Origin: a bacterium
GTDB lineage: Bacteria > Lernaellota > Lernaellaia > Lernaellales > Lernaellaceae
Length of the DNA: 64,000 bases
NCBI GenBank assembly: GCA_036725605.1
Contig: DAIMDW010000021.1
Location: forward strand, 28,044 to 92,043
Direction: 5' to 3'
In this document: piece after piece, positions 8,133 through 46,802 of the stretch
How positions within the stretch are numbered: the stretch's first letter is position 1
How the letters are laid out: every line of letters starts with the position of its first letter
Made by a program: the position numbers and the translations under genes
The notes under the pieces: generated by a model
Seen by the model: only the letters and a program-made list of their open reading frames with translations
Told to the model about the DNA's origin: nothing
The model's database searches: none

Positions 8133-8141
8133 TTTTGCGCT

Positions 8142-24584: not shown

Positions 24585-24621
24585 TTGCTTCGTGAAATGC
24601 CGATTTGAAAGGAGGATATGA

Positions 24622-24831: not shown

Positions 24832-24846
24832 CCGAAGGGAGTGCCC

Positions 24847-25053: not shown

Positions 25054-25065
25054 GAGGAGAATACC

Positions 25066-25485: not shown

Positions 25486-25488
25486 CCA

Positions 25489-25710: not shown

Positions 25711-25739
25711 ACTCCCGCCACAGCACGATCCCGCCTCTT

Positions 25740-25763
25740 GCGCCCTTTGCGGGGCGCTTTTCT
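25740..25763 (+). terminator. Rho-independent terminator
   Basis: GCGCCC-TTTGC-GGGGCGC then TTTTCTT; same hairpin in unit B at about 50131-50149 (-). Confidence 0.65.
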
Positions 25764-25866
25764 TCGGGCGGAAGAATTTCGCATAACTACTTGTTTCGCC
25801 TTGACTTTCACATGCGCCGAAGCCCTCATGCGGTCCATGAAAACGAGGACCACAAACCACAGGGAG

Positions 25867-26061
25867 ATGAACATGACGGAGTTTTACCAGACGCGCATGG
25901 GGCGCACGTTCTATGACCACACCCTGCCGACCATCGCAAAGGAACTGGGTCGGCTCAACGGGCTGCTGGAACGAATCGCCACGGCAATGGAAAAGCAGAA
26001 CCCCGGCCAGAGCGAAGGCCAGGACCAGAGCAACCAGGAGGTCAACGATGGCAAAGCCTAG
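25867..26061 (+). CDS. Small coiled-coil hypothetical protein
   Basis: EFYQT.MGRTFYDHTLPTIA.EL.RLN; homolog 49516-49686. Confidence 0.75.
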   Translation: MNMTEFYQTRMGRTFYDHTLPTIAKELGRLNGLLERIATAMEKQNPGQSEGQDQSNQEVNDGKA

Positions 26062-26263
26062 ATTGCGACGCGGAATGATCATGCGGTACGTGGGCGACGA
26101 CCACGCTTTCATGAAGGGACTCAAAGTCAAACTGATCGCCCCGATTCGCGGGGGCTGGTGGGATGTCGCACCCTGGATCGAAAAGGACGAACGCTTTTCC
26201 TGGGTCACCAGCGACGCCCGCCGCAAGGATCTGGTCCCGCTGGACGAGGAGGGAAAATCATGA
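26048..26263 (+). CDS. Small hypothetical protein
   Basis: GLKVKLIAPI...WWDVAPWIE..RFSWVTSDARR; homolog 49308-49535. Confidence 0.75.
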   Translation: MAKPRLRRGMIMRYVGDDHAFMKGLKVKLIAPIRGGWWDVAPWIEKDERFSWVTSDARRKDLVPLDEEGKS

Positions 26264-26553
26264 AACTCGAAATCGCCATCGACGTGCTCCAGTCCATGAT
26301 CGAACGCGCCCAGGGGAATCTGATCGCCATTCCGGAAGAGGAAGAGGTTGAAGCCCTGCAACGCGCAATCGACTGCCTGACCACCGCCGTCATCAAGCGG
26401 GAGGCTGAAATCAACCGGGCCGTCCACATGATCCGCGAGATCAGCGGGTGGCCTGACAAGGACGTTTCGGAAGTATGGATTTTCCTTCGTGACAAGATTC
26501 GGTTCAGCGAGGACGAGAAACTGGAAATCGAGAGCCGCCTGGGAATCAGGTAG
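26260..26553 (+). CDS. Helical hypothetical protein, distant paralog of the next gene
   Basis: EAL..AI.....A...RE.EI..AV..I....W....D.I.F..D.K.EI..RLG shared with 26563. Confidence 0.7.
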   Translation: MKLEIAIDVLQSMIERAQGNLIAIPEEEEVEALQRAIDCLTTAVIKREAEINRAVHMIREISGWPDKDVSEVWIFLRDKIRFSEDEKLEIESRLGIR

Positions 26554-26562
26554 GGGGTGACC

Positions 26563-26844
26563 ATGAATTTCAAGCAAGCGATCAAGGTGCTTCGCGCCCG
26601 CAAGCGACGCACAACCGGCAACGAGGCCGAGGCCCTGGCCATCGCCATCGAGCAGATGACCAAGGCCGACCGCAACCGGGAGGCCGAGATCGCCAAGGCG
26701 GTGGAGCTTATCCACGACGCGGTGTTCGACTCTGAGGGCAATCTTCACGAAAGCGCCTGGAGCTACATCAAGGATCGGATCGACTTCCCGCCCGACGACA
26801 AGGCCGAAATCATCCGGCGGCTCGGTCTGGACGAAAAGGAGTAG
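26563..26844 (+). CDS. Helical hypothetical protein
   Basis: Homolog of 49009-49305 (HESAWSY.KDRIDFP..DKAEIIRRLGL). Confidence 0.8.
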   Translation: MNFKQAIKVLRARKRRTTGNEAEALAIAIEQMTKADRNREAEIAKAVELIHDAVFDSEGNLHESAWSYIKDRIDFPPDDKAEIIRRLGLDEKE

Positions 26845-26847
26845 CCG

Positions 26848-27732
26848 GTGAATCTGCAAACCGCCATCGACCAATTCCTCACCCGGCTCGAAGCCGAGGG
26901 TAAAAGCTCGCACACCATCAGCTGCTATCAGCGGGACCTGCGATCGCTTGCGGCATTCGCGGGCGACATCGCCGTCGCCGAACTCACCGAGGACCTGCTG
27001 GCCCGGTTTCTTCTGTCCGACTCCGTAACGAAAACGCACACGGGCGCCCGTCGCGGCCAAGCCAGCATCGGGCGCATAAAGGCCTGCCTGAAATCGTTTG
27101 GGCGCTTTGTGGCCAACGTGGGCGCGACGGGGCGCGACCCCGCCGCATGGATCAAAGTGAAACGCCACCAGCGCGAGACGCCCAGCTATCTGACGCCCCA
27201 GGAGGTCAAGGTCCTGGTGAAAGCCGTGGCGTCCCGCAAGGGCGCGGCAGCCGAACGCGATCTGGTCATGCTGAAGATTCTGCTCGGCACCGGCATCCGG
27301 CTTGCGGAATTGGTCGGGCTGGACATCGCCGATATCAGGCTCGACGACAAGAAGCTGAGGCTTCGCCACACCAAGGGCGGGCATGCCCAGGAACGATTCA
27401 TCGCCACCGACCTGCGCCGCGCCCTGCGAAAATACATCCGCGAACGCAAGAAGGTCGCCGCCGACTCCGAAGCCCTGTTCCTTTCCAACCGCAACACCCG
27501 CATCAGCACCCGCCAGGTGCAGGCCCGCATGAAGCTCTGGCTCGCCTGGGCCGGGCTCGACGGAAAGATCACCGTCCACGGTTTGCGCCACACCTTCGCC
27601 ACGACCCTTTATGGCCGCACCCGCAACCTGCTGCTGGTATCCAAAGCCCTCGGCCACGCCCAGGTCGCCACCACGCAAATCTACGCCCACATCGCCGACG
27701 ACGAACTCGAACAGGCACTCGAAGCCCTTTAG
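26848..27732 (+). CDS. Tyrosine recombinase (XerC/D-like integrase), unit A
   Basis: Catalytic R (GIRLAEL), K (TKGG), HGLRH, LGH, Y (TQIYAH). Confidence 0.93.
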   Translation: MNLQTAIDQFLTRLEAEGKSSHTISCYQRDLRSLAAFAGDIAVAELTEDLLARFLLSDSVTKTHTGARRGQASIGRIKACLKSFGRFVANVGATGRDPAAWIKVKRHQRETPSYLTPQEVKVLVKAVASRKGAAAERDLVMLKILLGTGIRLAELVGLDIADIRLDDKKLRLRHTKGGHAQERFIATDLRRALRKYIRERKKVAADSEALFLSNRNTRISTRQVQARMKLWLAWAGLDGKITVHGLRHTFATTLYGRTRNLLLVSKALGHAQVATTQIYAHIADDELEQALEAL

Positions 27733-27862
27733 AACGACCAGCAGCGCCGCGATTCTTTTATGCGCATAAGGCGTCTTATGAGACGTTCCGTGGAAAATCG
27801 AGACGCGCAACGTCGCGGAACTTCGAGACCCGCCGACCGGACCGCCAACGACTTCTGCGAAC

Positions 27863-28498
27863 TTATTTTTGCGTTTTGCCGTCATCCGTCTCTTTTTCCT
27901 TGGCATCTTTCACGCGGGCCAGCAGAGCCACCGCCCATTCAGCGGGCGTGGTGGTCGGCCCGGAACCGCTGTCGCGCTGGGCGCGGGTGGTTTTCAGGCA
28001 CTCCAGCTGCTTGCGAAAGAGCACGTCGTAATTGCCGACTGCGGCATCGGCATTGCCGAGAACCGCGCAGTGCCACTTGGCGTAATAAAAAGCCGCCATC
28101 GATGCCTGGGCGAGGTCGGTTGATTCGTTGAGATCGAAGTCCCGGTGGATCGCGGCGAGCAGTTCCTCGAAGATCGCCTTCTCCTCGTCGGTCAGCATCT
28201 TTTTCACGTAAGCGCCGTGCTTGAGACCGTTGAGGTTGCCGCGCATCTTTTCCGGCGGCGCACCACCGTGGTTTTTCGGATTGGCACCATGGAAGCGGCA
28301 GACCTTGTAGCCTTCCACGACCGGGCTCTTGCACCGCTGGCCGGTGCTTTTCGATTTCGCCTTGCAGCGAAGGACGCGCCGTCCCAGCACAACAACGAAA
28401 TCATCGTCGTCGCCAACCGGAAGTGAGGCGGCGTTTTGTTCGGCGACATTACCGGGGTTGGATTTCGCTTTTTCGTCGGTTAATTCAGCCATTTTCAC
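27863..28498 (-). CDS. HGGxSTG-domain protein (TerS-like), copy 2
   Basis: RCKAKSKSTGQRCK.P...G..VCRFHG, GNLNGLKHGAY. Confidence 0.78.
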   Translation of the reverse strand: MKMAELTDEKAKSNPGNVAEQNAASLPVGDDDDFVVVLGRRVLRCKAKSKSTGQRCKSPVVEGYKVCRFHGANPKNHGGAPPEKMRGNLNGLKHGAYVKKMLTDEEKAIFEELLAAIHRDFDLNESTDLAQASMAAFYYAKWHCAVLGNADAAVGNYDVLFRKQLECLKTTRAQRDSGSGPTTTPAEWAVALLARVKDAKEKETDDGKTQK

Positions 28499-29725: not shown

Positions 29726-30492
29726 CAGAACAGCCGGGCCTGTTGCGGCGGCTGCGTGGGTTTGGGTTGAGGGGGTTGGGTTTCGGGTTTCGGTGGTGAC
29801 GTGGGAGCCGGACTTGGGGTGTAAAAATCCTCCGGAATATCCCGCTGCGGTCCCACGTATGTGATTTCGCTCCCGGGAAATGCGTGCATCACCATCGAAA
29901 GTTTGCGCAGGTCCTCGGCGGAAATTTCGATGCGATCCTGGCCAGCCCTGTCGGTGTAATCGGGAACGAGCGTGAAATCCCCGGGCTTGGATTTGACGTG
30001 GACCTCGACGCCCAGGGCCTTGAACGACTCGACGTCCTTGGGCGTGAGTTCGCGGGAGACGAGGGTCGCGGCGCAGTCTTCAGCGGATTCATGGTCGAAC
30101 CCGCCGTCAAATTCCATGATCGCCGCGCGTTCGTCCCAAGACTCGACGATACCGATGGCATGGTCATGGGTGGGCGCGACATATAATTTCTCGTCCAGGG
30201 TGTCCAGCGCCGTGAGCAGAGCCTTGTCGCCGAGGTGCTCCAGTGCCCAGGTGTTTATCGCGTTGAACCGCTGGCGCAGAGTTTTCCAGGTTTGGGCTGC
30301 CAGCTTACCGGCTTCGTGCGCTTTTTTGGCTCGCTCCATCCGGCGACGAAGCCAGGCGTAGTACGGGGCATCGAGGCGGCGATAAACGGTATTGCCGATC
30401 ATCACGTCCTGGGGATGGTCGGGGGCATTTTCCAGTGTGATGTGCCTCAGGTCCGTGGCGACGCGCAGGGCGACCTTGTTTTTTTCACTCAT
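29725..30492 (-). CDS. Hypothetical protein
   Basis: Coupled to neighbours; contains WDERAAIMEFDGG, a motif often seen next to primases in such elements. Confidence 0.65.
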   Translation of the reverse strand: MSEKNKVALRVATDLRHITLENAPDHPQDVMIGNTVYRRLDAPYYAWLRRRMERAKKAHEAGKLAAQTWKTLRQRFNAINTWALEHLGDKALLTALDTLDEKLYVAPTHDHAIGIVESWDERAAIMEFDGGFDHESAEDCAATLVSRELTPKDVESFKALGVEVHVKSKPGDFTLVPDYTDRAGQDRIEISAEDLRKLSMVMHAFPGSEITYVGPQRDIPEDFYTPSPAPTSPPKPETQPPQPKPTQPPQQARLF

Positions 30493-33400
30493 GGTCTTCC
30501 TCCTGGGGATCGAAGTCGGCCAAATCGCCGGAAAGCGTTTTGCGGTGGGTTGGGTGGGTTGCGGTGTGTTCTCCAGCAGATTCTTCCTGCGCGCCCGCGT
30601 ACGCGGACCGGGAATTATTCACCGCACTCACCGCATTCACCGTGGAGCATTGATTTTGTTGAGGATTTTCCTGCGGTGAGTCTGCGGTGGGTTGATTTGA
30701 CTCACCGCGCGGTTTTTCGGCCTTTTTGGAAAAGAGATCGACTATTTCACCGGGTGTTCTGCCTTCGCCGTCGCTGACATTGACGAGGCCGTAGGTCTGG
30801 TTTTTGGTTCTGGGATTTCGCTGGATCGATATCCGGTAAATATCAAACTGCCGATCGCGCATGGCGCTGAGGGCTCGTCCGAGCCGAATCTTCTGGGACT
30901 GGGGGCCCTTGTCGCCGATGGTTGCGGAGAGCAGTCCCCGCTCAGTGGCAAGACCCAGGAGTTCGGCAGCGGCCACATATCGCGGCCCGAACCGATCCCA
31001 CCATTCGGCGGTGAACTCCCGCCATTCGTTGCCCTCGTGGTCGGCGGCTTCATATAGTTCTTCGAGATCACCGAGAAAACCGGGGATATCAGCGAACTTC
31101 AGGATGCCGCCGATGGTGCGTGCCCAGGAATCGAAGGACCCGAACGATACTTTTTCCGTCTTTTGGCCCGCGACAACCCAGCCGCGAATGATGGTAAGAA
31201 GCGCGGTGATCAGTGCGGATCTGTTGCGCTCTACCCAGTCATCAAGGGGAGAGTGTTTAAACCCCGAGAGCAACCACGGCCGATCATGATGGGAGTCGAT
31301 TCGGATGCGAACGCAGCGCCGGGCGATCTCCAGGGTAAGCGTGGGATTGTTGGCGGTGGCAAGCCAGAGCGCATTGTTGGGTAAGGTGACGATATGGCTG
31401 GAACCCAGGATGCGGTCGCTCCACTCGGTGTCCGTAAGCACGCTGGCCAAGAATGCCGACCTGATGCCCCCGGAAATATTGTCGAGGAGGATGATTTGGG
31501 GTGCGCGGCTCAGTATCGATGTGAATTTCTTGGCGTTTTCTCCCTCGTCCCTGACGAGCGGCAAACTGGCGGCTTCCTTTTTGGCGAGGGCGATTTTCGA
31601 TATCGCTTTTGCAAGCAGCGACTTTCCGGTGCCCGGTGATGGTGATTCGATCAGGTGCAAGGGCGTCGGCCCCTGGATCATGCGGCGCACAAAGGGATGC
31701 AACAGCGCGGCGATGGCATGGGCGCGATCCGATGGGGCCGTGAACGGAAAATCGACGAGCAGGTCGTTGATCAGCAGGGAGCGTGCCTCGGCCACCTGGG
31801 AATCGGTGGGGTGCTCGGGAACATTCACCGGTTCGAAGCCGCGTGGACGATGAAGCCAGAGTCGAGCATCACGGTGATATCCCGGCGCTTGGACGAGGCT
31901 GCCGTTTCGATCAAAAGTGGGGGTGGTTGCAACGCTTTCCAACGGAGGAAGCGAGTGATGCGGCCGCTTCACCATAACCATCGGAAGTTCCTTGGGCGGA
32001 TTGGCGGGCAACTCCATGTCGGGAGTTCGCCGAACCCAAGAGGCGATGCTGCATAAGTGATCGAACATGATGGTGGCGTCCACGGGAATGATTTCCGGGG
32101 TGTCTTTGAAAAAGGTCAGGCACACCGGGGAGCCGGTTCTCATGAACAGCTTCGGCGGATAATTGGAGGACTGAACCGCCGCCCAAGCCTCATCGCGGAT
32201 GTAGCGAAAATGGCGGTTGTTCACGATGATGGTGGGAAGGCGGGGGCCATCACCACCATTACTTTTCGGGCCATCACCCATTACTTTTTGGGCCTTCGGA
32301 CCATTACTTTTTGGCTGAATGTAATGGTCGGGCATTACTTTCGGGGTTGCTGAACCATTACTTTCCGCCTCGATGTAATGGTCTCCATTACTTTTGGCAT
32401 TACTTTCGGTTTCGGATGTAATGGTCGCGGTGGGTTCCGCCATTACTTTTTGCGGTAAAATGTAATGGTCTTGCTCGTTGCGGAGGATCTGTTCGTCTTT
32501 CGCCATACGGTGGAGCAGGACGCGAGTCGAGTTTTGATCGCGTCCCAGGCGCTCGGCGACGTCTTTGGGAGCAAGAGGCTCCTCGGCCTCAATAAGGCAT
32601 TCCAGAATCTCCCGGCGCTTTTTCGATTTGACCCCGTCGACCAATTCCGCCGGATCGATGTCCATGAACTCGGCGATCTCCTCGTCCGTGGGCAACGGCG
32701 GGTGATCATGTCTCGGCGGCTCCCATCCGGCCTTTTTCGCCATATCGAACAGGGTGCCGAGGGTGACGCCGCCGCCGGACGAGAAGCTCCCCCACTTGTC
32801 CTCGGGTTCACAGGCCACGTATTTGTCGCCGCGAGCGCTCCACGAATCCCAGATGGAAAGTCCGGCCTGCGGTTCCCATTCGTGGAGAGCCATGCCGATC
32901 CGGACCCAGTCGTCGTAGGAACAGTCGGGGGATATGGAGTCCAGGGCAGAGATGACGAGATCGGAGTCGGTTGCCGGATAATCGGAGGGGCCAGATGATG
33001 GGCTGCGGGGCCCGGTACTTTTCTCCTGCCTCTTGGGCCTCTTCTTTAAAACCACATTGCACAAATCATCCGGCACCTGGTCAACGATGGCGGCGAGATC
33101 GGCAACTGAAAACCGTTCGAATTCCTGGGGATCGCTGGGCGCGGGTTCGCCATCGTCGCCGACCACGTAAAACCTGTTGCCGCCGTCCTTCGCATCGAAC
33201 CAGAACGGCAACCAGACTAGGTTGCCCGCCGAGTGCTTGGTGCTGCTCACCTTGTTCTGTTTCGGGAAGCATTCGATGCCCCTGTTGGTGCGTACATCTG
33301 CGATCTCGCCGGTAACCAGGGGTTGATCGACCGGTGCAATGAAATGGCCGAGCAGTCTGGCATCAACAGCCGGAACCGGCTCTTCGAAAAACACCCAGAG

Positions 33401-33871
33401 ATGCCATCCGGCGCCGCTGCCCGATTTTTCGATGTGGACGGGGATGCCGAGTTCGCAACACCGTTGGTAGCACACCATCATCGTTGCCAGCGGATCAGCC
33501 AGCGTCGTGCCCTTGGAGTGATCGGCGCCCGGGCCGTCGAAATCGAGACAAAGCCAGGAGGCGGTATCATCGGGGGCGACCGAATAGCTTCCCAGACGAT
33601 CAAAACCCCGCCCATCGGCAACTTGGCCGGATGTTCTGCGATTGATGTAATTGAGCGGCGGGGCCTTGCCGCCGGACGGTCCGACCACATGGAAAGCGAT
33701 GAGATCGCCAAGGGCCTTCTCTTCCCGAACAGGACGCGGCCGGGATTTCGTTTCTCCGGATTTGCGATCCACCCACGATTGGCAGGCCGCGACGATGTCG
33801 ATCCGGGCAAAAAAGTATTCGCGCAACAGGCGACAGGCTTTTTCTTGCTCCGAGGTCAACCGCCTACCCAT
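30485..33871 (-). CDS. Replication protein: AEP (TOTE-type) primase + PriCT-2 + wHTH + NTPase/helicase, unit A
   Basis: WLCLDFDG, HIEKSGSG.GWHLWVFF, SYDDWVRIGMALH...WD.WS..G.KY, SPSPGTGKS, ILLDNI; start at GGAGG-preceded ATG 33871. Confidence 0.85.
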   Translation of the reverse strand: MGRRLTSEQEKACRLLREYFFARIDIVAACQSWVDRKSGETKSRPRPVREEKALGDLIAFHVVGPSGGKAPPLNYINRRTSGQVADGRGFDRLGSYSVAPDDTASWLCLDFDGPGADHSKGTTLADPLATMMVCYQRCCELGIPVHIEKSGSGAGWHLWVFFEEPVPAVDARLLGHFIAPVDQPLVTGEIADVRTNRGIECFPKQNKVSSTKHSAGNLVWLPFWFDAKDGGNRFYVVGDDGEPAPSDPQEFERFSVADLAAIVDQVPDDLCNVVLKKRPKRQEKSTGPRSPSSGPSDYPATDSDLVISALDSISPDCSYDDWVRIGMALHEWEPQAGLSIWDSWSARGDKYVACEPEDKWGSFSSGGGVTLGTLFDMAKKAGWEPPRHDHPPLPTDEEIAEFMDIDPAELVDGVKSKKRREILECLIEAEEPLAPKDVAERLGRDQNSTRVLLHRMAKDEQILRNEQDHYILPQKVMAEPTATITSETESNAKSNGDHYIEAESNGSATPKVMPDHYIQPKSNGPKAQKVMGDGPKSNGGDGPRLPTIIVNNRHFRYIRDEAWAAVQSSNYPPKLFMRTGSPVCLTFFKDTPEIIPVDATIMFDHLCSIASWVRRTPDMELPANPPKELPMVMVKRPHHSLPPLESVATTPTFDRNGSLVQAPGYHRDARLWLHRPRGFEPVNVPEHPTDSQVAEARSLLINDLLVDFPFTAPSDRAHAIAALLHPFVRRMIQGPTPLHLIESPSPGTGKSLLAKAISKIALAKKEAASLPLVRDEGENAKKFTSILSRAPQIILLDNISGGIRSAFLASVLTDTEWSDRILGSSHIVTLPNNALWLATANNPTLTLEIARRCVRIRIDSHHDRPWLLSGFKHSPLDDWVERNRSALITALLTIIRGWVVAGQKTEKVSFGSFDSWARTIGGILKFADIPGFLGDLEELYEAADHEGNEWREFTAEWWDRFGPRYVAAAELLGLATERGLLSATIGDKGPQSQKIRLGRALSAMRDRQFDIYRISIQRNPRTKNQTYGLVNVSDGEGRTPGEIVDLFSKKAEKPRGESNQPTADSPQENPQQNQCSTVNAVSAVNNSRSAYAGAQEESAGEHTATHPTHRKTLSGDLADFDPQEEDHE
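30542..30708. repeat. CACCGC/GCGGTG iteron-like repeats in the 3' end of primase A
   Basis: About 8 direct and inverted copies within 170 bp. Confidence 0.5.
32257..32470. repeat. Intragenic iteron cluster: 8x CATTACTTT and 4x TGTAATGGTC
   Basis: Counted directly; encodes the KSNG/KVM/DHYI repeats between the wHTH and helicase parts of primase A. Confidence 0.8.
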
Positions 33872-36095
33872 GGATCGCCTCCTGGGTAAGCCCGTCCTTT
33901 CGCCAAAGACCAAGGAAGGTGCTGCGATTGTCGTTGGCCTGTTTCTGGGCGCAGTTTCGGATGCCCCAACGATCGCCGATGATGATCGTCGTTTCCTGGG
34001 CGCGGGATACGCCGGTGTAAAAGAGGTTCTGGCTGTGCATGAACGAATGGCTCTTGTGGATCACCACGACCGCACAGGGAAATTCGCTGCCCTGGGTCTG
34101 GTGGATCGTGAGGGCATAGGCCAGCTGCAGGTCGCTGAGATTGCCGTCGGATCGTTTGAGAAGGACCTCGGCGTTTTCGAATCGGACGCGCAGGTCGCCA
34201 TTGGCGAAAACCTGGGTCACGCGCCCGATGGAGCCGTTCATAATGCCGAGGTCATAGTTGTTGCGGCGCTGGATGACCTTGTCGTGAAGCAGGAACCGGG
34301 GGCGGCGATTGGCTTTTACGGGCTCGACATCGACGCCGTACAGCTTTTTCTGAATGAGCCGCTGGAGTTCGAGATTCAATTCCTCGACGCCGAGCGGATC
34401 CTTTCGCTTGGGCGTGAGCAACTGGACGTCCTCGATGAGATCGAAACCCAACTTGTCGGCCAGGATGGAATCATAGAGATCGCAAACGAGCCGCCGCACA
34501 TCCCAGGCGTCAGTAAAATTGTCGATCCGGTACCAGGGGCGACGACCGCTGGGCAACACCGATTCCGAAGTCTTGGCGACCTTACCGGACAGCACATCAA
34601 TGGAGTTTTGCCGAAGCTCACCGGCCTGCCGAACGATATCAGTGAGCACCACGCCGGGCACGATGCCGGTATGGATCAGGTCGCGCAGCAGATCACCGGG
34701 GCCAACCGGCGGCAGCTGGTTATGGTCGCCGACGAAGACTACGGCGGTTTTGTCGTGATCAATGGAGCGCAGCAGACGCCACGCCAGCGGGATATCCACC
34801 ATTGATGATTCGTCGATGACAATAATGTCGCAGTCGATGGGATCATCCGGACCTTTGCCCCACTCATGACCGTTGTATTCCAGTAACCGATGGATGGTGG
34901 ATGCGCGTATGCCGACCACCTCCTCAAGTCTGCGGGCGGCTTTGCCGGTGGGCGCACAGAGAACCACCCGGAAACCGAGGGATTCATAGAGCCGAGCCAA
35001 TTCACCGACTGTGAAAGTCTTGCCGCTTCCACCACCGCCGGAAATCGTGACAATCTGGTTGGTGAGCGCAACGACAACCGCTTCGCGCTGTTTGGGATTG
35101 AGGTCGGGACAGAGTTTACCATCACGCACCTGTTGCCAGATGCCGAGCAGGTCCATCACCAGGGGGTGGTCACGGTCGCCGTTGCGAAGCCAACCCTCGA
35201 CCTCCCGCTCCATCATGTGGATGGACTTTCGAGCCACAAGCCAACGCCCGTCATGGGAATCGCACGCGAGCTTGCCCGCTTTGATCAAACCATCCAATTC
35301 GTGTTCGATAATGTCACGGGAGTTCAGGGCGTCCATTATTAGGAGCCTGTTGGCCTGTTCGATGAGGTCTGATTCCTCGATCCAGGTGTGCCCTTTGTCG
35401 AGGGCGGTATCGACGCAATCGATTATTCCGGCACGAACACGCGGTGGAAAGTCCTTGGCGATGCCGATCTTCCGGGCAATGGCATCAACTCGCTTGAAGC
35501 CGAAGCCGCGTACGTCCCGCACGATGAGATACGGGTTGTTCTTGATGATAGATACCGCGTCGTTCTCATATTTTTCGATGAGCGTTCGGATCTGATGATG
35601 AGTAAGACCAAAGGCGGAAAGCTCCGATGCGGCCACGTTGCTGGCCTGGCGCTGCATCCATTCGGTCCGAATGTTGCGGGCCGCTTCGATTGTGATGGGA
35701 CCGGCTTTGGCGATCGCCTCGGGGTTTTCCACGATGATCTTGCCGAAATCCCGACCGAACTTTTCCGCAATGCGCCGAGCTTTAACAGGGCCAAGGCCGA
35801 CAAAAACAGGATTGTCCGCAAGATATCGTGCAAGCCCTTCCTCGGATAGATTGAGATCGTGCGTGAGCGTCTCGGTTTTGAACTGTCGCTGATATTTGGA
35901 ATGCATTTCCCAGTCGCCGTGGAGCACAACTTGCTCGCCGACCGCCGCGACAACGGTTCCGGCAAAGTTGATCAGCTTGCCGTTGTCGTCCCGTTTCAGG
36001 CGTCCAGCCGTATAGGTCGGCGATGAAAAAAAGAGGTGCTCCACCCGTCCGGAAATGGATTTTGATTCATGTTCGATGTGGGATGCCGTTTTCAA
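33864..36095 (-). CDS. recD2: RecD2-like SF1B ATP-dependent helicase
   Basis: NPY.....V.GFGFKRVD.IA, Walker A variant GGGGSGKT, IDESSMVD, GDHNQLPPVGPG, LAYALTIHQTQGSEF, LFYTGVSRA. Confidence 0.9.
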   Translation of the reverse strand: MKTASHIEHESKSISGRVEHLFFSSPTYTAGRLKRDDNGKLINFAGTVVAAVGEQVVLHGDWEMHSKYQRQFKTETLTHDLNLSEEGLARYLADNPVFVGLGPVKARRIAEKFGRDFGKIIVENPEAIAKAGPITIEAARNIRTEWMQRQASNVAASELSAFGLTHHQIRTLIEKYENDAVSIIKNNPYLIVRDVRGFGFKRVDAIARKIGIAKDFPPRVRAGIIDCVDTALDKGHTWIEESDLIEQANRLLIMDALNSRDIIEHELDGLIKAGKLACDSHDGRWLVARKSIHMMEREVEGWLRNGDRDHPLVMDLLGIWQQVRDGKLCPDLNPKQREAVVVALTNQIVTISGGGGSGKTFTVGELARLYESLGFRVVLCAPTGKAARRLEEVVGIRASTIHRLLEYNGHEWGKGPDDPIDCDIIVIDESSMVDIPLAWRLLRSIDHDKTAVVFVGDHNQLPPVGPGDLLRDLIHTGIVPGVVLTDIVRQAGELRQNSIDVLSGKVAKTSESVLPSGRRPWYRIDNFTDAWDVRRLVCDLYDSILADKLGFDLIEDVQLLTPKRKDPLGVEELNLELQRLIQKKLYGVDVEPVKANRRPRFLLHDKVIQRRNNYDLGIMNGSIGRVTQVFANGDLRVRFENAEVLLKRSDGNLSDLQLAYALTIHQTQGSEFPCAVVVIHKSHSFMHSQNLFYTGVSRAQETTIIIGDRWGIRNCAQKQANDNRSTFLGLWRKDGLTQEAIHG

Positions 36096-36102
36096 CTGTC
36101 AT

Positions 36103-36207
36103 GCCTTTCCTTTATGCTTCGATTCGTTCGGTTCCATTCCGTTTTGATCCGATCCACTCATCTTCATTCGTTTTTCAATTCCACCGGCCGAGGCCGACTC
36201 GATTCGA
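36103..36207 (-). repeat. Pentamer array 3 (21 in-phase 5-mers, NN+GRA, more degenerate)
   Basis: ...gtGGA tcGGA tcAAA acGGA atGGA acCGA acGAA tcGAA gcATA aaGGA. Confidence 0.7.
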
Positions 36208-36225
36208 CCACGGACGCTGAAATCG

Positions 36226-36310
36226 ACCTTTTCAATCCTTTCCATTCCGCTTCATTGCCTTCCGGTCTGATTTCCTCCTATCCCCTTCCGTCCGATTTCT
36301 TCCGTTACTG
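36226..36310 (-). repeat. Pentamer array 2 (17 units, 13 ending G-N-A)
   Basis: caGTA acGGA agAAA tcGGA cgGAA ggGGA taGGA ggAAA tcAGA ccGGA agGCA atGAA gcGGA atGGA aaGGA ttGAA aaGGT. Confidence 0.85.
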
Positions 36311-36320
36311 ATCACTGCGG

Positions 36321-36480
36321 TTGAATGGTCAGCGAAACCCCCGATTAAGGAGGCTCCGCTGGGCGTTCAAATAAATTCCAAACCATCCTTTTCTTTTCAC
36401 TCCATTCCGCCCGGCTGCTTTTCTATCCTTTCCACTCCGCCGCTATCCGTTTGCCTTCTCTCCGGTACACTGCTCGTCTC
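36321..36480 (-). ncRNA. Putative guide RNA: pentamer array 1 (22 units, 17 ending G-N-A) plus 3' hairpin
   Basis: gaGCA gtGTA ccGGA gaGAA ggCAA acGGA taGCG gcGGA gtGGA aaGGA taGAA aaGCA gcCGG gcGGA atGGA gtGAA aaGAA aaGGA tgGTT tgGAA ttTAT ttGAA, then a 13-bp stem CAGCGGAGCCTCC-TTAATC-GGGGGTTTCGCTG. Confidence 0.7.
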
Positions 36481-36483
36481 TAG

Positions 36484-37002
36484 TCATTTTTCTTTTTCCG
36501 CCGCCATGTTCAGGAAGGCTTTGATGTTCGGTGCTTTGCCGCTGATGTTGGCGGGGATCAGTTTCTTGGTGTCCACGGTGGCGACGCGGTAGATCGCGCC
36601 GGTGCGAAGACGCTCCATTTCCAGGTGCCTTTTCGCGTCATCGTCCAGCTGGTCGGCGTTGATCTTGACCAGGACGCCCATGGTTTTTTTCGTGTGGCGC
36701 GTGGCCAATTCCCGACGGCCCTGAGCGAAATCCACCGCCTCTGCCTCGGTAAGGCGGCGGAATCCCACTTTGGTCACGGTGTCGATGAAGATTTCCTCGT
36801 TCCACAGATTCTTTTGAGCGGTGTAGAAACAGCCGCGCTTTTTCTCCTGGTAATCAACGCCACGCCGGGCATGTAATTCCTCGTATGTGATGACCTCGCC
36901 CGGCTCCAAAGCGCGAAGATCGTTCATGAGGGCGGTGGTTTCCGGGCTCATACGAAAAGGCGGGAACCGATTGACGACCTGGGCCTGGGATGATGTGTCC
37001 AT
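36484..37002 (-). CDS. Hypothetical protein with probable winged-HTH, between the RAMP gene and the arrays
   Basis: GGAGG SD then ATG 37002; EVITYEELH...G.DY...RG.FY.A.K.L; the longer 36484-37578 call is an upstream extension overlapping the RAMP gene. Confidence 0.7.
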   Translation of the reverse strand: MDTSSQAQVVNRFPPFRMSPETTALMNDLRALEPGEVITYEELHARRGVDYQEKKRGCFYTAQKNLWNEEIFIDTVTKVGFRRLTEAEAVDFAQGRRELATRHTKKTMGVLVKINADQLDDDAKRHLEMERLRTGAIYRVATVDTKKLIPANISGKAPNIKAFLNMAAEKEK

Positions 37003-37012
37003 GACGACCTCC

Positions 37013-37591
37013 TTATTTCTGCTTCCAGACCAGGTCCTCAACAACGAACCGCCCGTAATAACCGTTGTTCTGGGGGCGGAATCTGCCGAGCCCGTTGAAA
37101 AAGCCGGTGGCGACGATGTGCTCCTCGAAAATGTCCTTGGTGATTTCCGGCGCGGCGATGTGAACGGTCGCCTCGGTGCGCCATTCATCGATGGTGGGAA
37201 ATACGCGGGCGACTCGTTTCGCTCCACCCCGTTTGCCGTCGGAGGGCACGTGGATTTTTTCGGGATAGATGCGCGGGTCTTCGATGTGAACGCCGAGGTA
37301 AAGACGCTGATCGATGGCGATGCCCTTGGTGAACTGGGCGGTAAAACCCCGCTGCGATCCCTTGACCTTTTTGCCGAGAAACTTCGCCGTTTCAGAGAGG
37401 GCGTAATGCAGGGCCATCGGCGGGATGAAAACCTGGCCGTCACGGTCGTAGTGCAGCTTTTCCCGCCAGTGCTCGTCCTCCCACTCGTCGTAGGACTGGT
37501 TTTGGCCCTTTTCGATGTTGAGATACCGGCTGTTGCTGTAGGGCGACTGCCCGATAATCGAGAATTTCGCTTCAACAAATTGGATGCTCAT
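37013..37591 (-). CDS. Stand-alone RAMP/Cas7-like protein (candidate RNA-guided effector)
   Basis: RAMP-like motifs IIGQSPY, FIPPMALHYAL, RVARVFP..DEW, and Gly-rich loop GFFNGLGRFRPQNNGYYGRF.V; GGAG SD; no cas genes or CRISPR array nearby. Confidence 0.75.
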   Translation of the reverse strand: MSIQFVEAKFSIIGQSPYSNSRYLNIEKGQNQSYDEWEDEHWREKLHYDRDGQVFIPPMALHYALSETAKFLGKKVKGSQRGFTAQFTKGIAIDQRLYLGVHIEDPRIYPEKIHVPSDGKRGGAKRVARVFPTIDEWRTEATVHIAAPEITKDIFEEHIVATGFFNGLGRFRPQNNGYYGRFVVEDLVWKQK

Positions 37592-37603
37592 GATATGCTC
37601 CTG

Positions 37604-38164
37604 TCAGTGTGAATGTTCTGTTTCGCCGCCCGCGCCATGGGCGGCTTTTGTTTGCCGTTCCTTTGCTTTGCAGCCCGTTTCTGCCGTTTCCGGTTCTGTC
37701 CGATCCTTTCGTCTTCTTTCCGGTCCAATCGTTTTCCGAAGACATTCGGCCGCCGCGATCAAAAAATGTTCGGTGAAAGCCCGGGCGATCTGCCTGTTGG
37801 AACAGGGGATAACCGGAATGCCTTTGTTAACGACGATGCTGATCAGTGCTCCGAAGACGCTTGCGGGGTGAGCGCCGGATCGGTAGCTGCCGGAGAGGAT
37901 GTCGGAGAGATTTCCCTCGACGACCACGCAGGAATGGGCATATTCGGCGAGCTTTGTAAGTTCCAACCCGAACCTGCGACGATCCGAGATGACGGATTTC
38001 ACAAAATCGTCCAGCGACTTTCGTTCGACAGCGATGGAGGTTTCCATCCCCTCGACCGAATAATCCCCGGCGGGCAATGCGCGGCGTTCCGTCATCACCC
38101 CCTGAAACTCGTAGGGGATCTGTTCCCTGGTATCGATGATGATGGTCGGCGTATTCATGTTCAA
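37604..38164 (-). CDS. ERCC4/XPF-domain nuclease
   Basis: IIIDTREQ.P, LPAGDYS, IAVERKSLDDF, F..EL..L; the last about 45 aa are low-complexity read-through of array 0. Confidence 0.88.
   Translation of the reverse strand: MNMNTPTIIIDTREQIPYEFQGVMTERRALPAGDYSVEGMETSIAVERKSLDDFVKSVISDRRRFGLELTKLAEYAHSCVVVEGNLSDILSGSYRSGAHPASVFGALISIVVNKGIPVIPCSNRQIARAFTEHFLIAAAECLRKTIGPERRRKDRTEPETAETGCKAKERQTKAAHGAGGETEHSH
37625..37738 (-). ncRNA. Putative guide RNA: pentamer array 0 (17 units, 12 ending G-N-A) plus 7-bp GC hairpin, overlapping the ERCC4 tail
   Basis: cgGAA aaCGA ttGGA ccGGA aaGAA gaCGA aaGGA tcGGA caGAA ccGGA aaCGG caGAA acGGG ctGCA aaGCA aaGGA acGGC, then GCCGCCC-ATGGCGC-GGGCGGC. Confidence 0.65.
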
Positions 38165-38628
38165 AACGCCGACAACGCGCTTTTGGCGGCGTCCTGATAA
38201 TCGCCGTCCGGATTCTCAAGCACGATGCGTTTGTTGAAATAAATGTTGGAATACTCGCCGCGCGTGCGCTTCGTGACCTCGAGTCCCACGTCCAGAAGTT
38301 CGTTCAGGCGATTCGGAAGATCGGACAGTTTGGCCAGTTCCAGTCCGCAGAGGAGCAAATCGGCCTTCAAATATTTCAGGTTATCCCGGCTGGCCATTAC
38401 GCTGTTGCGAAAGAGCATGCGGCCGCGATGCTGGGGACCGAGCACCCGCAACTGCCACTTGAGCATGGGGGCGCCGTTCTGCGTGTTCCCCATTTCGACC
38501 TTTTCCACCTTGGCTTGATATTTTCCATCGGGAAGGTCGTCGAACTGGTTGGGTTCCACTTCCGCTGCCGCGTAATCATCATCCAGCGCGGCGAGATCGA
38601 AGTTCTGGTTGTCGTATTGGTCTGTCAT
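38161..38628 (-). CDS. DUF669 family (phage SSB-like) protein
   Basis: FDDLPDGKYQA.V, G.PMLKWQLRV, GRMLF; ATG 38628 after GGAGG. Confidence 0.8.
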   Translation of the reverse strand: MTDQYDNQNFDLAALDDDYAAAEVEPNQFDDLPDGKYQAKVEKVEMGNTQNGAPMLKWQLRVLGPQHRGRMLFRNSVMASRDNLKYLKADLLLCGLELAKLSDLPNRLNELLDVGLEVTKRTRGEYSNIYFNKRIVLENPDGDYQDAAKSALSAF

Positions 38629-43521: not shown

Positions 43522-43676
43522 GTGACAATTCGTTTTCTTTTGGGGTTGTCGAAAAAATCGAGCCCCGGCGAAGCGGAAGGCAAAGCCTTCACATGGCCCT
43601 ACGAGGTAATCGGAAGAACCGATCCCGCGTTGGACCGAAGGCGAGGTCCTTCCGTTTCGGCGGGGCTTTTCTTTTT
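43522..43676 (+). promoter_or_regulatory. Terminator/antiterminator leader ahead of primase B
   Basis: GGGG-TTG-TCGA-AAAAA-TCGA-G-CCCC hairpin overlaps the 5' arm of a 20-bp stem ending CGGGGCT-TTTCTTTT. Confidence 0.6.
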
Positions 43677-43688
43677 GAGGGGGTCGCA

Positions 43689-46600
43689 GTGCACGAAAAG
43701 GAAAAATGCGTTCAACTTCTGCTTAAGGATTTTCTCACAAGGCGGGACGTTGTCGCGGCGCGGCAGCAGTGGCAGGACCGCCGGAGTAGAGAGTGGATTT
43801 CCAGGCCTCGCCCGGTTAAAGCCGGCCCACAATTGGAGAGTTTGGTCGCCTTCCATGTCTATGGACCGGAGGGACGCAAGGCACCCCCATTAAATTACAT
43901 CAATAACAAAACCGGGGCTCTCGTTGCCGATGGCCGTGGCTTTGACCGCTTGGGTGCTTATGCCGTCACACCGGACAATAAATGCGGGTGGCTTTGTCTT
44001 GATTTTGATGGTCCGGGCCATCCGCTGCCTTTAGCTGACCCGACGGCCACGATGCTTGCGTGCGTGGAACGCTGCCGCGCTTTGGGCGTCCCCAGCCACA
44101 TCGAGATGTCCGGCAGCGGCCATGGTTGGCATCTCTGGGTGTTTTTCGAAAACCCGGTGCCGGCCTCTGATGCGCGGTTGCTCGGGCATCGTGTCGCACC
44201 CACGGATCATCTGCTCGTCACCGGCGAGCCCGCCGATATCCGAACAGGGCGTGGGATCGAATGCTTCCCGAAGCAGAACACGGTCAGCGACAAGAAAATC
44301 GGCGCGGGCAACATGGTCTGGCTGCCGCATTGGTTTGGAGCAATAGGCGGGGGAAATCAATTCCATCGGTTCACGGACGAAAGGATTCTCGCCCCGTATT
44401 TACCTGACGAGTTCGAACGACTACCGGTCGAGCGGCTCCAGGACATCCTCACCCAGGTGCCCGACGATATTAGGCACTTCGTGCTAAAAACGAAGGATGG
44501 ACTAAAGGCCCCGTCGGCTCCGAAAAGTAGTCCACACGCTGCGTCCACCAACTATGCGCCAAGCGACACTCAGATGATCCAGGCGGCACTCGATCACATC
44601 TCGCCCGACGTTTCCTATGACGACTGGCTTCGTATCGGCATGGCACTTCACCACTGGGACGCGCAGGCGGGGCTTTCCCTTTGGGACGCCTGGAGCGCAC
44701 TCGGCGAGAAGTATGTGGATGGCGAGCCTCCGCTCAAGTGGGACGGATTCACATCCGGCGGCGGCGTCACACTCGGCACCCTGTTCGATATGGCAAAAAA
44801 AGCGGGTTGGACCTCACCCGTTCATAAACGGGTTCCGCTGCCAAGTGACGAAGAGATCAACGATTTTATTGACGTTGACCCATCCGCATTGCTCGATGGA
44901 GCGGCTTTTAAACGAACGATCAACGCTGAAACCGCTCTTTCTGGTTCGGACGGGATCACAGTTTCAGATAGAAAGCGATTGCCGGTCATTATCGTCAATA
45001 ATCGAACCGGTCCTGCACTGATCGAGGAAGCTTGGGCGGCGATTCGTGCTTCCAATTATCCACCGCGAATATTCCAACGGAATGGCGCATTGGTCCGACT
45101 CACGATGAATACGGACCCTCCGAAAATCATCCCCATGAATTTCGTCTCCATGTATGGCCTTTTATGGCGGGTTGCCAATTGCGTCGTCGATGCCAACGAC
45201 ATGCAGAAGTCGGTCAACCCGCCCAAAGATCTGGCTAGCGACATGCTGGAGTATCCCGACCCAACGTTACCCCACCTCGATGCCGTCGTCTCCACGCCGG
45301 TCTATGATCGCGAGGGCAATCTTGTTCAAGCGCCCGGGTATCACCGAACCGCTCGGCTCTGGATGCATATCGCGCCCGGAACATTGCCATATGATGTTCC
45401 GACCAAACCATCAGACGCACAGATCGCCGAAGCCGTTGCTCTTCTCAACAACGAACTATTTGTCGATTTTCCGTTCACCTCGCAGTCCGGCCGTGCTCAT
45501 GCCGTGGCCGCTCTGTTGCAGCCTTTCATCCGGCGGATGGTCGATGGGCCGACCCCCATGTATTTGCTGGAGTCGCCGAGCCCGGGCACCGGAAAAACCC
45601 TTCTCGCGAAAGTCATCTCCAGAATTGTGCTCGGCAAGTCTGTCAACGCGGCAAGCCTCGATCTGGATGAGCAAGCTATCGCGAAAAAGATCACGGCCAT
45701 TCTTCTGGGCGCACCGCAGGTCGTCCTAATCGACAACATCAATGTTCGCACTGGTCTCAAGTCGGCCGCTCTGGCCGCCGCAATGACCGCCGAACCTTAT
45801 TCCGAACGCGTTTTATACCAACCCGGCATGACGGAGCTTCCCAACCATGCGTTGTGGCTTATCACGGCCAACAATCCGAGCATGTCCCTGGAGATTGCCC
45901 GCCGCTGTGTCAGCATACGCATCGACGCGCGACACGACCGACCTTGGCGTCTGCATGGATTCAAGCACGAGCCGCTGGATGATTGGGTGGTAGAAAACCG
46001 TGCGGCCTTGATCACGGCCATTCTCACCATCGTGCGTGGCTGGATCGTCGCGGGGCGGCCGTCGGGAAAATTGACCTTCGGTTCCTTTGATTCATGGGCC
46101 CGCATTACCGGTGGCATTCTTCAGTTCTCAGGCATTCCCGGATTTCTTTCCAACCTCGAAGACCTGTACGAAGCAGCGGACACCGAAGGTGGGGAATGGC
46201 GCGAATTCGTCGCCGCGTGGTGGAGCAAATTCGGCGGGCGGGTTGTACCTTTTGCGGAACTGTTGGACCTCGCCAATGAAAAGGGCTTGCTCCCATCCGT
46301 CGTCGGCGATCAGGGATCGCGCGCGCAAAAGACACGGCTCGGCCGCGCCCTCAGCGCCATGAGGAATAGGCAGTTTGATTCCTATCGAATTGTGCAGCGA
46401 AGAAACAGCCATACGAAGCAATCCGAATACACGCTGGAAGAGGTAAACGCCGACGACCAACGCATACCGCATGGAATGGCTCCGGTCCTGCCGCTTTTTG
46501 CGGGTGATCGTCAGCCATCGAGCGCATCATCCGCAATATCGTCCGCGAAAAATAATTCTAAAAATCAGCCAGTTGCGGATGATGCGGAAGATGCGGAAGA

Positions 46601-46802
46601 CATTTCCAATTTGCTGGATAACGAGGGCGATAAAAAAGGGATGGAGGGGGTATATGAGAACAATAGAGGGCTATCATCCGCATCAACCGCAAACGTAGAA
46701 ATTCATCAGCACAATCAGCAAGTTAGCCATGCGGAGGATGATTCGAGATTATCTCCGGCATCATCAGCGGATCTCGCCGACTTCGAACCTGAGGAGGATT
46801 AA
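43689..46802 (+). CDS. Replication protein: AEP (TOTE-type) primase + PriCT-2 + NTPase/helicase, unit B
   Basis: WLCLDFDG, GWHLWVFF, SYDDWLRIGMALH, SPSPGTGKT; collinear with primase A but lacking the wHTH/iteron insert; GTG start after GAGGGG. Confidence 0.85.
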   Translation: MHEKEKCVQLLLKDFLTRRDVVAARQQWQDRRSREWISRPRPVKAGPQLESLVAFHVYGPEGRKAPPLNYINNKTGALVADGRGFDRLGAYAVTPDNKCGWLCLDFDGPGHPLPLADPTATMLACVERCRALGVPSHIEMSGSGHGWHLWVFFENPVPASDARLLGHRVAPTDHLLVTGEPADIRTGRGIECFPKQNTVSDKKIGAGNMVWLPHWFGAIGGGNQFHRFTDERILAPYLPDEFERLPVERLQDILTQVPDDIRHFVLKTKDGLKAPSAPKSSPHAASTNYAPSDTQMIQAALDHISPDVSYDDWLRIGMALHHWDAQAGLSLWDAWSALGEKYVDGEPPLKWDGFTSGGGVTLGTLFDMAKKAGWTSPVHKRVPLPSDEEINDFIDVDPSALLDGAAFKRTINAETALSGSDGITVSDRKRLPVIIVNNRTGPALIEEAWAAIRASNYPPRIFQRNGALVRLTMNTDPPKIIPMNFVSMYGLLWRVANCVVDANDMQKSVNPPKDLASDMLEYPDPTLPHLDAVVSTPVYDREGNLVQAPGYHRTARLWMHIAPGTLPYDVPTKPSDAQIAEAVALLNNELFVDFPFTSQSGRAHAVAALLQPFIRRMVDGPTPMYLLESPSPGTGKTLLAKVISRIVLGKSVNAASLDLDEQAIAKKITAILLGAPQVVLIDNINVRTGLKSAALAAAMTAEPYSERVLYQPGMTELPNHALWLITANNPSMSLEIARRCVSIRIDARHDRPWRLHGFKHEPLDDWVVENRAALITAILTIVRGWIVAGRPSGKLTFGSFDSWARITGGILQFSGIPGFLSNLEDLYEAADTEGGEWREFVAAWWSKFGGRVVPFAELLDLANEKGLLPSVVGDQGSRAQKTRLGRALSAMRNRQFDSYRIVQRRNSHTKQSEYTLEEVNADDQRIPHGMAPVLPLFAGDRQPSSASSAISSAKNNSKNQPVADDAEDAEDISNLLDNEGDKKGMEGVYENNRGLSSASTANVEIHQHNQQVSHAEDDSRLSPASSADLADFEPEED
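46527..46781. repeat. TCCGC/GCGGA iteron-like repeats in the 3' end of primase B
   Basis: About 8 copies, e.g. GCGGATGATGCGGAAGATGCGGAAG. Confidence 0.5.

Follow-up and report, generated by a model that had tools for sequence, protein, structure and literature searches.

The closest described relative of the locus analysed here is VIPR (Viral Interference Programmable Repeat), a CRISPR-like system for RNA-guided binding of DNA with Escherichia phage SUSP1 as its exemplar (bioRxiv 10.64898/2026.04.26.720920, 10.64898/2026.04.26.720927). It combines a phage-encoded minimal RAMP protein (Vipr), an accessory vap gene and guide RNAs of ~100 nt (vrRNAs), in which 9-16 YNNGG pentamers, with conserved GGY and hypervariable NN positions, precede a constant structured tail (10.64898/2026.04.26.720920). 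In SUSP1 one vrRNA lies upstream and three lie downstream of the vipr and vap genes, and the NN bases pair with double-stranded DNA while every third target base is skipped (the 1-nt-skip or xNN rule; 10.64898/2026.04.26.720920). One Vipr protomer is bound per repeat with the GGY bases sequestered, and the third-base pocket of the SUSP1 protein, where C173 is a named residue of the pyrimidine pocket, excludes purines (10.64898/2026.04.26.720927). For SUSP1 it is established that a competing phage or element is bound in a sequence-specific manner and repressed, GGY>GGA is listed among the substitutions that abolish silencing, and a role in conflict between mobile elements has been proposed (bioRxiv 10.64898/2026.04.26.720920, 10.64898/2026.04.26.720927). 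Published vrRNAs are expressed and protein-bound, including the upstream RNA of SUSP1, which is a bona fide expressed vrRNA, and turnover of NN with retention of the triplets is the signature reported for vrRNAs of close relatives (both preprints, 10.64898/2026.04.26.720920 and 10.64898/2026.04.26.720927). As published, a VIPR array has at least four units of YNNGG or a related consensus, with NNNGG, YNNNG and NNNNG allowed (bioRxiv 10.64898/2026.04.26.720920, 10.64898/2026.04.26.720927).

The 64,000-nt stretch of DNA analysed here (the window) most likely holds a further VIPR locus, and the kind of system is therefore one already described in these two preprints; the locus itself was not seen in the text of either. 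We conclude with high confidence that array A, a run of pentamers at 37738-37625 on the minus strand, is the gene for a putative VIPR guide RNA in a four-guide locus of an integrated mobile element. A first reading of the letters alone (the sequence-only reading) had picked out the signature of a system not described until 2026, claiming that array A is a guide unit and that the RAMP gene is bracketed by guides. The comparisons below uphold this.

Like SUSP1 VIPR, the locus has a minimal single-RRM RAMP with a G-loop, is carried by a mobile element, and contains guide units of ~75-95 nt made of tandem pentamers (a triplet plus a variable NN) with a constant 3' part, one array lying upstream and three downstream of vipr and a putative vap. 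It differs from SUSP1 in its triplet, which is G-R-A rather than GGY and so lacks the third-base pyrimidine, yet a related consensus is allowed in the published definition. The four tails of the window differ among themselves with no evident pseudoknot, whereas the SUSP1 tail is invariant, and the 3' end of a protein-coding frame extends over its upstream guide, the upstream guide of SUSP1 being intergenic. Three traits of this VIPR are unusual: the G-R-A repeat, with a pocket residue that co-varies with it, the heterogeneity of the tails, and the position of the upstream guide, hidden where a coding frame has its 3' end.

Class 1 CRISPR-Cas complexes (Cas7, Csm3 and type VII Cas7, with their crRNA) resemble the locus in protein fold (Foldseek E 3e-9) and in the use of one RAMP protomer per short RNA segment with periodically flipped bases. 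Unlike them, the locus holds neither a repeat-spacer array nor other cas genes, and its guide would be non-contiguous, with a period of 5 nt and three bases sequestered as opposed to 6 nt and one flipped base in CRISPR.

Gene content of the locus

All genes around array A lie on the minus strand. In the order of transcription, the neighbourhood reads as follows:

40494-39403, minus strand: PD-(D/E)XK exonuclease
39406-38645, minus strand: Sak4-like AAA_24 ATPase
38715-38161, minus strand: DUF669 single-strand-binding protein
38164-37604, minus strand: ERCC4-type nuclease ORF of 186 aa (Pfam PF02732, E 3e-19); its conserved part, aa 1-142, is 37739-38164
37592-37624, minus strand: vipr leader, read from the sequence, with the ERCC4 stop TGA at 37606-37604 and a ribosome-binding site AGGAG at 37602-37598
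37013-37591, minus strand: vipr, a minimal Cas7-like RAMP of 192 aa by prediction; no Pfam match and, as sole PHROG match, PHROG 4652 (function not known)
36484-37002, minus strand: vap-like accessory ORF of 172 aa, no Pfam or PHROG match
Gap of 388 nt between the 172-aa ORF and the RecD2-like gene, holding arrays B1, B2 and B3
36095-33864, minus strand: RecD2-like helicase
33913-30485, minus strand: AEP primase

Chromosomal sequence makes up the first 18 kb of the window, where a cobalamin riboswitch and genes for a TonB-dependent receptor and FecCD-type permeases are found, and a large serine recombinase is encoded at 56840-58348, from which we infer that the VIPR locus sits in an integrated mobile element. 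Phage structural genes were not recognised in the window. Around array A (35500-38500) no CRISPR repeat-spacer array was found, the sole tandem repeat being array A itself, seen as a 20-nt unit. Searches of the locus proteins with PADLOC and Rfam returned only generic RecD and PrimPol models and no CRISPR-Cas gene set, and the VIPR locus has neither Rfam matches nor a hammerhead ribozyme between its arrays. A promoter scan of 35900-38300 with a sigma-70-like model, which may not be that of the host, gave no hit, so that a promoter of the upstream guide's own, another point of difference from SUSP1, was not detected under this model. The ERCC4 gene is a neighbour from the recombination module and not a VIPR partner. 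ERCC4 and RecD2 had also been considered as nuclease and helicase vap genes, and this was rejected, as neither adjoins vipr in 160 related loci.

The RAMP protein and the putative vap gene

That the neighbouring 192-aa protein is a RAMP, as the sequence-only reading had it, is borne out by its predicted structure and by profile comparison. The AF2 model built from 37 sequences is of high quality (pLDDT 94, pTM 0.87), and its best Foldseek matches in the PDB are type VII Cas7 (8yhe, E 2.8e-9) and type III-A Csm3, at TM ~0.55-0.6. Compared with SUSP1 Vipr, the family profile aligned over 143 columns that include the G-loop (hhalign probability 96.7%, E 4e-10); the G-loop of the window protein is GLGRFRPQNNGYYGRF, with Asn166 aligned to SUSP1 C173. 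By model and profile, then, the protein is a minimal Cas7-like RAMP and a homologue of the characterised SUSP1 Vipr. The two are distant relatives, SUSP1 being reachable by profile comparison alone, and tblastn against GenBank phages retrieved only Pseudomonas phage LESphi2 at 24% identity. The family comprises 199 word-indexed matches; IMG/VR contributes at least 263 relatives and the JGI metagenomes at least 524, and a single-protein scan of GTDB genomes gave none.

Homologues of the 172-aa ORF were found in 40 of 160 related loci, with 39 matches on the strand of vipr and 34 directly downstream of it, and this recurrent position beside vipr makes the ORF a likely vap. It matches an ORF of related locus L124 (pairwise E 3e-6); to SUSP1 vap1, in contrast, it has no detectable sequence similarity. 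The AF2 model is poor (pLDDT 54) and has an H-b-H-H-b-b topology with only weak Foldseek matches to winged-helix proteins, so that the core may possibly be a winged helix.

A pentamer array inside the ERCC4 reading frame

Array A consists of 19 in-phase pentamers with the consensus NN-G-R-A on the minus strand from 37738 to 37644 (CGGAA AACGA TTGGA CCGGA AAGAA GACGA AAGGA TCGGA CAGAA CCGGA AACGG CAGAA ACGGG CTGCA AAGCA AAGGA ACGGC AAACA AAAGC), followed by a hairpin. As counted from this list, the strict consensus occurs in 10 of the 19 units and at least two of the three conserved positions in 16. The in-phase array had been noticed before and was then put at 17 units, close to the 19 listed here. 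Three parts can be distinguished:

37669-37738, minus strand: variable (guide) part of 14 NN-GRA pentamers, overlapping ERCC4 codons 143-166
37644-37668, minus strand: conserved 3' handle, the last five units (AAGCA AAGGA ACGGC AAACA AAAGC), with NN = AA in four
37625-37645, minus strand: tail hairpin (perfect 7-bp GC stem, 7-nt loop), which would probably cap the putative guide RNA at its 3' end

In the variable part the NN order is CG AA TT CC AA GA AA TC CA CC AA CA AC CT, which is A-rich (AA in 4 of 14 units), and the target sequence derived from array A under the xNN rule is nCGnAAnTTnCCnAAnGAnAAnTCnCAnCCnAAnCAnACnCT. The hairpin (GCCGCCC at 37645-37639, loop ATGGCGC, GGGCGGC at 37631-37625) is the centroid structure of the region, in agreement with the perfect 7-bp GC stem proposed earlier. 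It does lie just before the RAMP start as claimed, at a distance of 33 nt from the vipr ATG (37591) instead of 34.

The repeat is far from random. Its period-5 Fourier power of 6.24 was reached by none of 5000 dinucleotide shuffles (mean 0.72, sd 0.48, max 3.80) and was equalled by only 2 of the 12781 sliding 95-nt windows along the 64 kb, both of them in array B2 at ~36230. Period-3 power is 0.80, which is background, and array A therefore carries no codon signal, as the earlier remark that codon structure does not predict a 5-nt period had implied. With 4 T in 95 nt, the tract is so T-poor that none of the three forward frames has a stop codon between 37745 and 37607, and only for this reason does the ERCC4 frame cross array A.

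Codon 143 of ERCC4 marks the exact start of array A, beyond the Pfam ERCC4 domain at aa 10-125. This raises the question whether the region could be a functional basic/acidic C-terminal extension of ERCC4, for instance a DNA-binding tail, with the 5-nt period incidental. The frame is open to 37604 and the tail is probably translated, and short variable tails are frequent in ERCC4 homologues, which would fit such an extension. An alignment of ERCC4 homologues had been named as one check, with conservation of the tail at the protein level in homologues lacking the RAMP gene as the outcome that would speak against a guide. No such conservation was seen: in 22 aligned sequences (including 21 homologues) the conserved core ends at ~aa 145, and beyond it the tails vary in length and sequence and do not align. 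Among the best 120 of 1562 homologues most are 145-177 aa long with ~70-78% query coverage. In two close relatives the ERCC4 stop falls at different points inside the array, giving proteins of 165 and 166 aa compared to 186 aa in the window, and a long open frame enters the upstream array in 12 of 72 related loci as well. Against an extension stand also the background period-3 power with all three frames open, and the presence of the same repeat in three non-coding arrays and beside vipr genes that have no ERCC4 neighbour. We regard a functional extension as very improbable. The K/R/E-rich tail of 44 residues is most likely a translated read-through by-product without a function of its own, in line with the sequence-only reading, by which the ORF merely reads through a guide unit. 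VIPR guides can accordingly hide in annotated reading frames, and searches restricted to intergenic regions or to YNNGG will miss some.

Sister arrays downstream of the vap-like gene

Three further arrays occupy the gap between the 172-aa ORF and the RecD2-like gene:

36381-36465, minus strand: array B1, 17 NN-GRA units with a 13-bp hairpin behind them (36361-36330)
36231-36305, minus strand: array B2, 15 units, followed by a hairpin-bearing tail GTCGATTTCAGCG...
36103-36177, minus strand: array B3, 15 units, no hairpin, ending 7 nt before the RecD2 start at 36095

All four arrays, of 15-19 units, lie on the strand of vipr and end with AA units. Taken together, their 66 units have G at position 3 in 76% of cases, a purine at position 4 in 88% and A at position 5 in 88% (58 of 66), positions 1 and 2 being mixed, and the sister arrays are as degenerate in their triplets as array A. 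The earlier statement that the same array-plus-hairpin design occurs on both sides of the RAMP gene stands for the arrays. For the hairpins it holds only in part, since those of B1 and B2 differ in sequence and B3 has none. In the related locus L176, which has four downstream arrays compared to three in the window, the same two tail types recur: the B1 tail occurs twice, behind different NN, and the B2 tail is kept, with the same pattern of NN and triplets as in array A.

Arrays accompany vipr in related loci

Among the 81 loci first fetched, which comprise 80 viral Vipr loci and one contig found through its ERCC4 homologue (L081), 73 showed period-5 power above 4 in a 90-nt window, usually abutting vipr, and most of the ~160 loci in the whole set have such arrays next to the gene. 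Across ~150 related loci an array was present within 300 nt upstream of vipr in 89 of 147 and within 1.5 kb downstream in 119 of 137. The same period-5 scan re-found the arrays of SUSP1 (KT454805) on both sides of ALH47069 and ALH47068. The triplet varies by clade, GGC being dominant and GAC, GTC, GGT, CGC and GTT occurring also, while GGA is found in the lineage of the window and in loci L113 and L124. L124 has seven clean NNGGA guides, each with an invariant 50-nt tail. In 231 GGY-type arrays NN is AA in 50% of last units and 42% of penultimate ones, as opposed to <10% in the interior, a pattern that the handle of array A resembles.

In 160 loci the arrays travelled with vipr and not with replication genes. 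They are strand-asymmetric and were always seen on the strand of vipr. This bears on the idea of a DNA-level element of the replication module, such as origin iterons or structured DNA, or of a plus-strand terminator after a pyrimidine tract. The surroundings are indeed rich in helicase, primase and recombination genes, and on the plus strand a terminator search scores the hairpin with its T-run as an intrinsic terminator. That score arises only because the A-rich handle gives a T-run there, and no plus-strand gene ends at the hairpin. Iterons do not typically have a 5-bp phase, which amounts to half a turn of the helix. Together with the constant strand and the association with vipr, and with published vrRNAs being expressed and protein-bound, this leaves a DNA-level element or terminator scarcely credible next to a guide RNA gene.

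RNAs bound by TRAP (trp RNA-binding attenuation protein) carry a (G/U)AG-NN triplet every ~5 nt, and the sponges of CsrA/RsmA (CsrB, RsmZ) contain many GGA motifs. The partner in the present locus is instead a RAMP, the 5-nt spacing is strict over 15-19 units, and the variable bases turn over as in guides; the likeness is one of pattern only, and the annotated ORFs include no evident TRAP or CsrA gene. Early ideas of phased A-tract curvature, origin iterons, TRAP-like or CsrA-sponge RNA, two-tier G-quadruplexes and a chance likeness to (GGAAT)n satellites were dropped because the arrays travel with the RAMP gene in ~160 loci and in view of the VIPR preprints.

Guide-like turnover of array A

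Seven further contigs with an identical Vipr are 100% identical across the arrays, save one mismatch in L087, and hence give no information on variability. Two diverged versions of the locus, whose Vipr is 94% identical to that of the window, were reached through the 90% Vipr cluster and two vap relatives. Anchored at the hairpin, the three versions of array A have the same pentamer register and contain 19, 23 and 21 units. In units 6-19 only 8-9 of 28 NN positions are identical among them (29-32%, approximately chance), compared to 28-31 of 42 triplet positions (67-74%). The last five units, by contrast, agree between the window and variant v3 in all 10 NN positions and in 12 of 15 triplet positions. 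The hairpin stem is identical in the three variants, with ATGGCGC or AGGGCAC as the loop, and these three show no covariation. At the level of sequence, this turnover is the signature reported for vrRNAs.

Taken with what is known of SUSP1, these features suggest the following mode of action. Array A would be transcribed on its sense strand together with the exo-sak4-ssb-ercc4 operon, and copies of Vipr would coat the RNA with one protomer per pentamer, as expected from homology to SUSP1 Vipr. By the same homology, each protomer would hold a G-R-A triplet and present the two variable bases. The NN bases would then pair with double-stranded DNA, skipping every third base, so that the DNA of a competitor is bound and silenced, a step established in SUSP1 and supported here for B3 (see below). 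The 3' handle units, mostly with NN = AA, and the GC hairpin would serve as a constant handle and cap. One point counts against this explanation: the ERCC4 mRNA would lose its stop codon if the guide were cut out of the operon RNA.

Candidate targets

Searching for the 20 specified bases of B3 units 3-12 under the 1-nt-skip rule gave 20/20 matches in 25 viral contigs of IMG/VR. All 25 matches are antisense to the codons for DVVIVDETSM, motif II of RecD-like helicase genes, and the skipped bases fall on wobble positions; for B3 such a candidate 1-nt-skip target in coding sequence, with the skip at the wobble, resembles described VIPR, as does the hypervariability of NN between close relatives. 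Extended to all 12 variable units of B3, the match covers as many as 23 of 24 NN bases, compared to 16-17 in shuffled-order controls. The matched helicase ORFs share 25-32% identity with the RecD2 of the element itself, whose gene (encoding DIIVIDESSM) matches B3 at only 18 of 30 positions. This class of matches supports a function of the locus under the published rule, and the helicase genes of rival elements are a plausible target class of B3. Motif II of such genes would be a candidate natural target class, in keeping with the part that VIPR has been proposed to play in conflicts among mobile elements.

For the other guides no target emerged. A 16-base seed of array A had only two chance matches, as opposed to the 25 contigs matched by the 20-base B3 seed, and exact xNN seeds of array A (units 2-11, 5-14, 3-10 and 8-14 in IMG/VR, units 2-11 in GTDB genomes) gave either none or matches that extended at chance level. 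A 14-base seed of array A reached at best 23 of 28 among at least 120 matches listed, which is also chance level. Exact seeds of B1 and B2 found no target in IMG/VR. Under the 1-nt-skip rule, none of the four guides had a site in the window or in ~1.1 Mb of related loci that scored above shuffled-order controls. Mismatch-tolerant local scans of these sequences and of the 25 contigs matched by B3 likewise yielded no site for arrays A, B1 and B2, nor for the two variant guides of array A.

Alternatively, array A could be a Vipr-binding site on the mRNA, where a filament close upstream of the vipr ribosome-binding site would feed back on translation of vipr and ERCC4, or it could be a former guide in decay. 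The array is part of the operon transcript, at 33 nt from the start of vipr, its own promoter was not detected, and its triplets are degenerate and its NN A-rich; the searches that found no target for it would also be consistent with such a site. A pure binding site, however, needs no variable part, and here the variable part turns over wholly at 94% Vipr identity while register and handle are kept. Upstream guides are moreover normal in the family (the 89 of 147 loci above), and the upstream RNA of SUSP1 is an expressed vrRNA. The sister arrays are equally degenerate, and B3 nonetheless has target matches. A binding site or decayed guide is thus unlikely, and a functional upstream guide remains the preferred reading of array A.

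An adenine-ending repeat and residue Asn166

Given that GGY>GGA is reported to abolish silencing in SUSP1, function of the G-R-A arrays would depend on a change in the specificity of the protein. The column of SUSP1 C173 was examined in an alignment of 151 Viprs, each labelled by the consensus of its array. Among the Viprs that are neither A-type nor SUSP1, 142 of 145 have Ile or Val in this column, while Asn occurs only in the five whose arrays end in A (the window, L179, L113, L124 and L125). These A-type Viprs form two non-sister lineages that are 42% identical, and in a neighbour-joining tree their common ancestor spans 149 of the 151 sequences. The nearest relatives of L124 are of GTC, GTT and GGC types at ~60%. 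This distribution suggests that Asn166 may help to read adenine.

Perhaps the locus belongs to an adenine-reading branch of VIPR. In this tentative proposal, which we hold to be possible and somewhat doubtful as a whole, an Ile-to-Asn change in the G-loop pocket (N166) would have re-specified the third base from pyrimidine to adenine at least twice independently, and the upstream guide would lie within the ERCC4 message, its maturation removing the stop codon and so coupling expression of the nuclease to production of the guide. If true, the independent Ile-to-Asn changes would mean that the 'constant' part of the code is evolvable and possibly orthogonal between co-resident systems. In any case the locus offers a natural G-R-A variant together with a candidate specificity residue, Asn166. 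Three further columns of the alignment, those of window residues T68, R81 and A141, follow the same A-type pattern.

Reading frames and turnover in the guide arrays

In 12 of the 72 related loci, a long open frame enters the upstream guide array, made up of 5-nt units of two variable bases (NN) and a triplet, by at least 30 nt (for example L110 3216-3992 and L157 1626-2495), which indicates that ORF read-through into guides is a recurrent feature of the Vipr family. Guide number also varies between relatives. L176, whose accessory gene vap is 86% identical to that of the window, carries four downstream arrays (790-1244) where the window has three (36096-36483), and the two sets share their tail types while differing in NN. 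This pattern argues that guides are gained or lost as whole units.

Judged by their sequence, two further loci are textbook GGA-type VIPR. L124 (5097-5800) contains seven guides and L113 (1140-1400) three, each of about 10 NNGGA units and each closing with the invariant tail AAGTAAACGAGCATAGGTTTGGTGCACCGTATAA.GCACCACC. Arrays of the same period were also present in a phage:

L173 2071-2402, period-5 arrays of Pseudomonas phage LESphi2 (OQ594955)

These lie immediately upstream of the sole Vipr homologue found by tblastn in a GenBank phage, a gene annotated as a hypothetical protein, and are neighbors of the cI and cro genes.

Pocket residue and A-ending repeats

The G-loop position aligned to C173 of the Escherichia phage SUSP1 Vipr, a residue of the pyrimidine pocket, is an asparagine in the 192-aa protein:

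37094-37096, Asn166 codon

Asn occupies this column solely in the five Viprs with arrays whose triplet ends in A (those of the window, L113, L124, L125 and L179), and Ile or Val is found in 142 of the 145 remaining Viprs, SUSP1 set apart. As the two Asn-bearing lineages are not sisters, the change looks convergent.

Array B3 and the neighboring helicase

36103-36177, downstream array B3, its NN code compared with loci L181-L205
33864-36095, RecD2-like helicase

When its NN bases are read with a one-base skip, B3 is identical to the antisense of helicase motif II, DVVIVDETSM, as found in 25 contigs of IMG/VR. RecD2 of the element itself begins 7 nt past B3; its gene encodes DIIVIDESSM and matches B3 at just 18 of 30 positions. 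In PADLOC this helicase scored best against the CRISPR-associated RecD model of type IV-D (E 2e-61). No such helicase was found next to vipr in other loci, and the likeness to type IV-D RecD is therefore probably mere family resemblance.

Other genes of the window

8126-8317 (+), cobalamin riboswitch (113 bits)
19996-23166 (-), ATP-dependent DNA ligase domain fused to a C-terminal AAA+ ATPase, IetA-like in PADLOC
30485-33913 (-), 43593-46802 (+) and 52845-55415 (-), AEP primase genes
56840-58348 (+), large serine recombinase

The riboswitch neighborhood holds genes for a TonB-dependent receptor, a periplasmic binding protein and a FecCD permease; this region is chromosomal and serves ordinary B12 uptake. 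Large ORFs adjoining the ligase-AAA+ fusion, including one of 1123 aa (24535-27906), were without matches. Three archaeo-eukaryotic primase (AEP-TOTE/PrimPol-like) genes occur on one element, the third of them fused to a ResIII/DEAD helicase. The large serine recombinase is probably the integrase of the mobile element, whose right side it would mark.
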